Shown here in pieces: positions 36,041 through 36,330 of a stretch of DNA of 64,000 nt. Position 1 is the first letter of the stretch. The number at the start of each line of letters is the position of its first letter. A program made the translations under genes and the position numbers. The notes under the pieces were generated by a model. The model saw only the letters and a list, made by a program, of their open reading frames with translations. It did no database searches and was not told the DNA's origin. Origin of the DNA: Eledone cirrhosa (Eukaryota); contig OZ024763.1 of assembly GCA_964016885.1 (NCBI GenBank), forward strand, positions 24,862,001-24,926,000, given 5' to 3'.

Positions 36041-36323
36041 TATAAAGGACGTAAAATAAGAAAATATTTTTTTAAAAAAATTTAAAAAAAATTTTTTTTC
36101 TTACTTAAATTTTCACTCCAACTAATTAGTTTCTGCAATGGGATAAAGACAGTTACGTAATCCAACTGTCGAGAATTCATTGCGTCATCAGGGAGTCTAT
36201 TCTCAGTTAAGTCTCCAGGCAATGCGCGGACACTAATTAGTTGGAGTGTTGGAGTGAAAATTTAAGTAAGAAAAAAAATTTTTTTTTAAATTTTTTTAAA
36301 AAAATATTTTCTTATTTTACGTC

Positions 36324-36330
<7 letters not shown>
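36041..36330. repeat. Inverted repeat (~90 bp arms) enclosing a hammerhead
   Basis: 36041-36131 is the reverse complement of 36232-36330 apart from an 8 nt TTGGAGTG duplication and homopolymer length. Confidence 0.9.
36115..36196 (-). ncRNA. Type I hammerhead ribozyme with canonical core
   Basis: Minus strand ACTCC-CTGATGA-C-GCAATG..GACAGTT..AACTGTC..CATTGC-A-GAAAC-TAATTA-GTT-GGAGT; stem I 5 bp, two-part stem II, palindromic stem III AACTAATTAGTT. Confidence 0.8.

Follow-up and report, generated by a model that had tools for sequence, protein, structure and literature searches.

A Hammerhead Motif Beside an Inverted, Core-Less Copy of Its Own 3′ Flank in Eledone cirrhosa Is Consistent with a Truncated PLE Insertion

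A stretch of 64,000 nucleotides of Eledone cirrhosa DNA (hereafter the window, whose numbering is used throughout) carries a hammerhead ribozyme motif beside an inverted copy of its own stem III and 3′ flank. This arrangement raises two questions, namely how the inverted copy came to be there and what it does to the ribozyme. The original prediction held that the locus derives from a Penelope-like element (PLE), a type of retrotransposon, with an inverted partial pLTR, that it is an intermediate on the way to the full palindromes found elsewhere in the window, and that the inverted arm could switch the ribozyme off.

The motif includes the CUGANGA and GAAA boxes in order, three helices in an arrangement that is open at stem I, and an NUH triplet at the cleavage position. 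Its predicted location and strand, 5-bp stem I, CTGATGA and GAAA boxes, palindromic stem III and GUU site were all borne out (Table 1). Stem II is formed by 6 bp, a 7x7 internal loop and then an inner 8-bp helix, and the palindromic stem III can pair over 3 to 4 bp within one molecule or over 10 bp between the two molecules of a dimer. A hammerhead descriptor applied to the whole window returned two relaxed matches (36191, minus, and 47262, plus), and the same search of the 23,657 unmasked nucleotides returned one relaxed and one strict match. The strict match is this motif, and the view that it is the best-formed hammerhead in the window therefore holds under the descriptor used. Strict matches were found in 0 of 300 dinucleotide shuffles of the unmasked nucleotides (relaxed null mean, 0.027), with the strict thresholds having been chosen with this motif in view. 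The hammerhead models of Rfam give no match to the motif at E-values up to 10, and no Rfam family reaches its gathering score over the window, where the best 150 of 678 matches by E-value are dominated by microRNA families on simple repeats. Matching to Rfam is a library test that lies outside the biochemical definition of a hammerhead.

The motif had also been called canonical. Canonical metazoan hammerheads are characterized by a helix I of 6 bp, a helix II of 4 bp, a loop-loop contact and a paired G10.1-C11.1 (PMC4209133), and the label fails under this definition, given the 5-bp stem I, the long stem II and the C-A mismatch next to the core; motifs of the Hydra type are named canonical in PMC8557442. 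A splice-donor-like GTAAG is present at 36104 (minus), 15 nt below the predicted cut and before an A/T tract, with no acceptor established.

Table 1. Positions in the window of the hammerhead motif, the arms, the tail, the target site and two further palindromes.
Feature	Position	Strand	Remarks
Type I hammerhead motif, PLE type	36115-36196	minus	GUU triplet; stem II long, with a C-A mismatch beneath it
Stem I	36196-36192 with 36119-36115	minus	5 Watson-Crick pairs
CTGATGA core box	36191-36185	minus	
Extra C after CTGATGA	36184	minus	
Stem II	36183-36178 with 36140-36135	minus	6 bp
Extra A before GAAA	36134	minus	
GAAA core box	36133-36130	minus	
GUU cleavage triplet	cut between 36120 and 36119	minus	predicted
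Left arm	36040-36130	minus	stem III, cleavage site, 3′ strand of stem I, 75-nt A/T-rich 3′ flank
Sequence upstream of ribozyme	36197-36231	minus	35 nt; ends in 4/6 microhomology at inversion junction
Right arm, inverted 5′-truncated copy	36232-36331	plus	starts at stem III palindrome; without catalytic core
8-nt tandem duplication	36241-36256	plus	in right arm, across copy of cleavage site
One-sided 3′ extension (tail)	35927-36039	minus	left boundary uncertain, 35927 to 35941
Bulged tail hairpin	36012-36035	minus	4 bp + 4 bp, 6-nt loop, UU bulge on 3′ side
16-bp hairpin near tail end	35944-35979	minus	predicted fold
Left (TA)n run	35894-35926	.	target site within 68-bp minisatellite unit
Right (TA)n run	36327-36408	.	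other half of target site
Palindrome	46903-47162		260 bp, one mismatch; hammerhead 3′ half in each arm, 14 nt from centre; no core
Palindrome with tail	62053-62245		116-bp palindrome (62130-62245) of hammerhead 3′ half, GUC site, 4-nt central loop

The inverted repeat of stem III and the 3′ flank, previously placed at 36232-36330, was confirmed and extends by one base to 36331. The two arms are identical at 91 of 91 aligned bases, with 0 substitutions and 9 gap columns. These gaps correspond to one extra T and to the 8-nt tandem duplication in the right arm, and this duplication had been overlooked in the earlier description of an otherwise correctly recognized copy. The arms lie head-to-head with their 5′ ends inward, are unequal in length and have a palindrome at their junction. 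As a pair they fold into one hairpin of -126.2 kcal/mol (z -18.5), with 0 of 200 shuffles as low.

Beyond 36130/36232, arm identity drops to 4/6 and then stops. The original prediction noted that GAAA reads GACA in the inverted copy, and a GACA is indeed present at 36229-36232, but it lies outside the perfect arm. The density of mismatches at the junction, 2/6 compared to 0/91 within the arm (Fisher p 0.003), argues against a point-mutated GAAA inside the duplication. These bases are better read as the inversion junction, where their partial match is due either to chance or to microhomology that is imperfect. The 35 nt that separate the ribozyme from the junction are probably the element's own sequence up to its truncation point. 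A second, degenerate hammerhead in these 35 nt was considered and rejected, since 727 and 1340 of 5000 shuffles scored at least as high.

Simple repeats make up 39,430 of the 64,000 bases of the window, which also includes one N gap and interspersed repeats of cephalopod-like appearance. The insertion resides inside the (TA)n run of one unit of a 68-bp minisatellite array. The first half of the split unit lies to the left of 35927 and the second half to the right of 36331, with the register kept on both sides. Thus, approximately 100 nt of unique sequence past the left arm are part of the insertion. The arms had been recognized as parts of the element in the original prediction, whereas this one-sided extension (35927/35941-36039) had been overlooked. 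The tail has a predicted fold with z -2.9, and 1 of 200 shuffles was as stable. The hammerhead is in the sense orientation and close to the 3′ end: 80 nt separate the predicted cut from the end of the arm, and some 180-190 nt separate it from the end of the insertion. Searches by BLAST revealed no further copy of the locus or its tail within the 64-kb window, and a search of prokaryotic genomes with one 24-nt pattern from the locus gave 0 matches, which was expected and is uninformative. The same minisatellite array contains a second unique insertion (36415-36736), on whose minus strand a C2H2 zinc-finger frame scores weakly (E 0.0017); this insertion is possibly the 3′ end of a LINE.

An inverted, 5′-truncated pLTR layout is general among PLEs, and the Hydra clade of these elements inserts preferentially into (TA)n (PMC8557442). 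With comparisons drawn from the window itself and from published tables, the closest known counterparts are Hydra-clade PLEs (for example Penelope-1_HM, Penelope-13_HM, Hydra-1_Obim, Hydra-1/2_Ajap and Hydra-2_Amil; PMC8557442). These share with the locus a type I hammerhead near the 3′ end, a stem III of the form AC..GU, a mismatch under stem II, in many cases GUU, a (TA)n target and an inverted 5′-truncated copy, and Penelope-13_HM in particular has an inverted 5′-truncated copy with hammerheads on both strands (PMC8557442). Counted from File S2 of PMC8557442, a stem III of 3-4 bp that opens with AC and closes with GU is present in 25 of 25 Hydra-clade families, and 10 of 25 have a U where cleavage takes place. 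Fifteen of the 25 show a 1x1 mismatch under stem II, which in PLE-X1_cBra is C-A, as at the locus (PMC8557442 File S2). The earlier suggestion that a C-A mismatch under stem II as the family consensus would count against the ribozyme is therefore misplaced, as such a mismatch is the majority state among the published families. The locus differs from the Hydra-clade rows in having 51 nt between its cores, about twice the longest row, in its longer tail and in the lack of an ORF. Six motif searches of the PMC8557442 supplement, four of them with motifs from the locus, gave hits in two cases, both in an unrelated context.

Other PLE-related systems resemble the locus to different degrees. Penelope copies of Adineta vaga (PMC3846280) likewise have a shorter inverted pLTR arranged head-to-head, a junction palindrome, a one-sided tail and microhomology, but unlike the locus they have flanking ORFs, 31-bp tails and often target duplications. 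The minimal hammerheads of PLEs (PMC4209133) resemble the locus in that stem I has 4-5 bp and stem II is long, CUGANGA is followed by an extra base, stem III is palindromic, and both a dimer mode and opposite-strand pairs occur. These hammerheads have weak activity as dimers and mostly occur as solo truncated copies, and opposite-strand hammerheads 100-700 bp apart are known (PMC4209133). The locus is unlike them in its 10-nt stem III palindrome, its extra base before GAAA and its opposite-strand copy without a core. Non-LTR retrozymes (PMC7229834; bioRxiv 10.64898/2026.07.22.740005) are also short, non-coding, PLE-related animal repeats with type I hammerheads. They consist, however, of head-to-tail tandem units with a ribozyme in each, whereas at the locus a single ribozyme is accompanied by a partial copy in inverted orientation, and a retrozyme was rejected because no tandem units with a complete hammerhead each are present.

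From its hammerhead style and (TA)n target, the locus most resembles the end of a Hydra-clade PLE. We consider it probable that the locus is a 5′-truncated insertion of a (TA)n-targeting PLE, most like the Hydra clade and in the usual head-to-head inverted form. The PLE origin with an inverted partial pLTR proposed in the original prediction is thus supported, in that arms, junction palindrome, one-sided position of the tail and (TA)n target match the published layout. Also consistent with this origin are a motif beyond chance expectation, two further core-less foldbacks in the window and a GIY-YIG fragment at 1-234. Against it stand the missing linked frame, the lack of a second copy in the window and of an Rfam match, a tail of ~100 nt where 30-40 nt are published, the 51 nt between cores, and the predicted misfolding of the monomer.

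The earlier proposal to look for a linked PLE RT or GIY-YIG ORF found none at the locus and no second copy of it in the window beside which to look, with Pfam applied to 150 unmasked frames of at least 42 aa. Matches were obtained in 3 of the 150, none of them to RT, and the 3′ flank and tail hold no long frame that might be the start of an ORF. An absent ORF would be expected for a truncated stub, but it leaves the assignment to PLEs, and to the Hydra clade, provisional. The GIY-YIG endonuclease frame at 1-234 (minus) is the only PLE-like match, at an E-value of 4.5e-4, below the Pfam cut-off; it is cut by the window edge, starts at a (TA)n run and is unlinked to the locus, 36 kb away. It is 46-48% identical to the endonuclease part of two proteins among nine candidates, and these relatives look like another PLE clade. 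The Hydra clade is defined at the protein level by RWK, DKT and a CxCX5C linker, with no CCHH (PMC8557442). Two frames without a Pfam match (42639-42884 and 56174-56422, both plus) resemble C-terminal pieces of non-LTR retrotransposon proteins.

A PLE protein has been found to nick and extend both target strands, with two internal start sites bounding a tail, and its initiation takes place in a stem-loop and does not need ribozyme cleavage in vitro (PMC11167929). Head-to-head repeats with junction palindromes are abundant in Adineta and have been read as products of self-priming (PMC3846280); in its passages on these copies, junction palindromes are not linked to hammerhead helices. With these activities, the locus could have formed in four steps. 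First, the endonuclease of the element would nick the (TA)n run. Second, reverse transcription from a distal start would copy the tail, the 3′ flank, the hammerhead and 35 nt more, and would then stop. Third, a second copy would be added in inverted orientation, ending at a proximal start on TA-rich bases immediately 5′ to the tail hairpin. In one route, the cDNA would fold back on its own stem III palindrome by way of the imperfectly matching junction bases; in the other, the second target strand would prime synthesis and the products would be joined. The locus is compatible with both routes alike. Fourth, either in the course of insertion or later, slippage by 8 nt at the structured cleavage site would give the tandem duplication. 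The product would be a dead stub whose read-through transcript is predicted to form a 91-bp hairpin.

Two further foldbacks in the window bear on this reading. In both palindromes (Table 1), a GAAA, a stem III of 4-5 bp and a cleavage triplet (GUA or GUC) lie 14-15 nt from the centre, without a CUGANGA core. Each is a foldback with its centre at the place expected for loop II. Equally good hammerhead 3′ halves were found in 94 and 38 of 20000 base shuffles. The 46903-47162 palindrome has a stem III like that of Hydra-1_Obim and a bulged hairpin 42 nt below its cut, and the 62-kb palindrome is flanked by (TA)n runs and extends on one side into a 77-nt tail with a bulged hairpin at its start. 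BLAST found no similarity among the 36-kb locus, 46903-47162 and 62130-62245. Consequently, the palindromes would be parallel products truncated at different points and not stages of one series, and the proposal that the locus is an intermediate between an intact pLTR and the full palindromes is unsupported.

This set of foldbacks also invites an interpretation wherein the locus itself is a palindromic spreading unit, either a MITE-like non-autonomous element or a family of non-autonomous PLEs. The near-perfect inverted arms of 91 bp with TA at their tips, and the presence of three such foldbacks in 64 kb, fit such an element. However, the three are unrelated in sequence, the arms start inside a ribozyme helix, and the insertion continues for ~100 nt past the left arm, such that its ends do not match the inverted repeats as they would in a cut-and-paste element. 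We therefore regard a spreading palindromic unit as improbable.

Several observations on these and other hammerhead-like sequences in the window are recorded here. Besides one homopolymer base, the arm differences in all three foldbacks fall on the predicted cut or no more than 6 nt beyond it (47000/47065; 62147/62228; 36241-36256); both arm substitutions are A/G in the ribozyme sense, and the joint chance of this pattern, calculated post hoc, is about 7e-4. Hammerhead-like cores are present at 18211, 19783, 23910, 47262 and 51513. A three-copy repeat (18060-18264, 26182-26321 and 55386-55559; 83-89% identical) has a minimal PLE-type hammerhead with a 4-bp stem II and a G-C base, whose core or stem I is damaged in each copy. 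Other hammerhead-like families are formed by 23910-24012 and 47254-47365, by 19687-19790 and 24400-24500, and by 51460-51520, and the 19.7/24.4-kb pair has a bulged hairpin 30-33 nt below the cut. A SINE-like repeat occurs in many, partly tandem copies (15227-16664, 32075-32787, 43030-43536, 54861-55202, 55864-56155 and 62760-62900), with a foldback at 26606-26704.

To return to the 36-kb locus, the effect of the arm on the ribozyme was evaluated by folding in ViennaRNA, with a model that ignores tertiary contacts and magnesium. The active hammerhead fold is predicted to cost ~3 kcal/mol in RNA that lacks the arm and 16.4 kcal/mol in the whole element. Even without the arm, the active fold accounts for 0.6-0.7% of the ensemble, since pairing of the core with stem III competes with it, and the monomer is predicted to misfold. 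An active dimer is favored over two monomers (-50.2 compared to -43.2 kcal/mol), with a non-active dimer lower still at -52.8 kcal/mol. The modeled energies thus support the earlier assignment to the minimal ribozymes with a palindromic stem III that act as dimers, and likewise the proposal that the arm could sequester stem III. The predicted block of the ribozyme fold by the arm is credible: the 91-bp hairpin would lock stem III, the GUU site and stem I, such that read-through RNA could not self-cleave.

If the arm were kept to silence the hammerhead, the ribozyme would be turned on in transcripts that start inside 36197-36243 or that lose the arm. Such a regulated switch gains some plausibility from the folding model, wherein the arm blocks folding at a cost of 16.4 kcal/mol, and stems I and II persist in RNAs that start at 36240 or below, while stem I is lost in RNAs starting at 36244, about 13 nt into the arm. 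But the arm is transcribed first, and in the modeled nascent transcript the block is already complete as base 36115 emerges. Moreover, the 0 substitutions between the arms point to a young event, and the same foldback layout elsewhere in the window deletes the core altogether. The switch proposed in the original prediction is consequently unsupported, with no sign of an on state or of selection, and we judge a regulated ribozyme to be very unlikely. According to the model, the block would be permanent rather than switch-like, and loss of ribozyme function would be a by-product and not regulation.

The tail of the putative PLE insertion begins with a feature that may mark where reverse transcription starts. 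A bulged hairpin begins 4 nt past the arm end, and a hairpin of the same shape (62101-62124) starts 5 nt beyond the arm of the 62-kb palindrome, where its one-sided extension opens. Between the two, 4 of 8 pairs are changed on both sides in a compensatory manner, a result reached in 39 of 500 cases by a shuffle control that has little power with two rows. Homology between the primary sequences of the two tails was rejected as not significant (1560 of 5000 shuffles). The hairpin shape recurred near the start of shuffled 62-kb tails in 2 of 50000 cases by a strict definition and in 22 of 20000 by a relaxed one, in a test that was devised post hoc. A third strict match of shape at 61899 looks unrelated.

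A covariance model built from the two sequences found no third match below E 0.05 in the window (best, 0.06). The descriptor was widened after the weak matches of this model had been inspected, and it then gave 12 matches in the window (null mean 3.6, maximum 8 in 200). For six of these 12, the 130 nt upstream include a hammerhead 3′ half (null mean 0.10). Without the two training matches the count is 4 of 10 (p 0.001), and with matches collapsed to independent elements it is 2 of 8 (p 0.06). Matches without a hammerhead half in this interval include 14030-14071, 8463-8504, 17885-17922 and 1344-1377, and most matches of this kind sit 60-155 nt before a microsatellite. Six new Hydra consensus ends from the PMC8557442 supplement were judged by eye, with no computation, and the hairpin is clear in three: Hydra-2_Amil (43 nt below the cut), Hydra-2_Ajap (38 nt below the cut) and Hydra-1_Ajap (at its extreme 5′ end, the place at which a tail would start). 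It is partial in Hydra-1_Crog and Hydra-1_Amil, and none was seen in Hydra-1_Obim. Neither this bulged hairpin nor a link between junction palindromes and hammerhead helices was found in the literature searched, which took in the smaller part of the subscription papers.

The positions of these hairpins are relevant to whether the inversion took place in DNA after an ordinary solo pLTR had inserted. Long (TA)n runs flank the arm, where fold-back during replication or the repair of a break beside (TA)n could have inverted the sequence. Microhomology and a small tandem duplication fit DNA repair equally well. Repair would be blind to the tail hairpin, yet the arms end 4 nt before it at 36 kb and 5 nt before it at 62 kb, and the junctions lie in ribozyme helices in three of three foldbacks. 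We accordingly give a later inversion of this kind very little credence. An assembly or library artefact such as a fold-back chimera has a negligible likelihood: the scaffold is repeat-rich with an N gap and the inverted structures of PLEs are difficult to assemble (PMC8557442), but the arms differ by an 8-nt duplication plus one base, and the minisatellite unit is in register on both sides of the insertion.

With the PLE insertion as the preferred reading, the hairpins and junctions can be combined in a proposal that we put forward tentatively, as possible rather than probable. (TA)n-targeting PLEs might hold a second conserved RNA element below the hammerhead, which would position reverse transcription, with the ribozyme helices serving as templates for fold-back. 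The proposed element would have an outer 4-bp stem of the form RYUC/GARY, a U-led bulge of 1-2 nt and an inner stem of 3-6 bp, and would lie just after a TA-rich stretch. As a cis signal, it would place the proximal start on the TA-rich bases 4-5 nt before the hairpin; this start would set the tail boundary and aid pairing to (TA)n targets. At the other end, the hammerhead helices would stall the enzyme and template the fold-back, at loop II in two of the elements and at the stem III palindrome in the one at 36 kb. If true, this would account for the junction palindromes of PLEs, with MITE-like, ribozyme-dead palindromes as products.

The inverted layout of PLE ends is already known, and to this extent the locus adds an ordinary PLE stub. 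For annotation, such foldbacks are open to confusion with MITEs or microRNA hairpins; among the best 150 of 678 sub-threshold Rfam matches are microRNA families on one foldback. How PLEs choose internal start sites, make tails and form inverted ends are open questions (PMC8557442; PMC11167929). The covarying hairpin at the tail boundary and the junctions in ribozyme helices may provide two directly testable handles on the formation of PLE ends.
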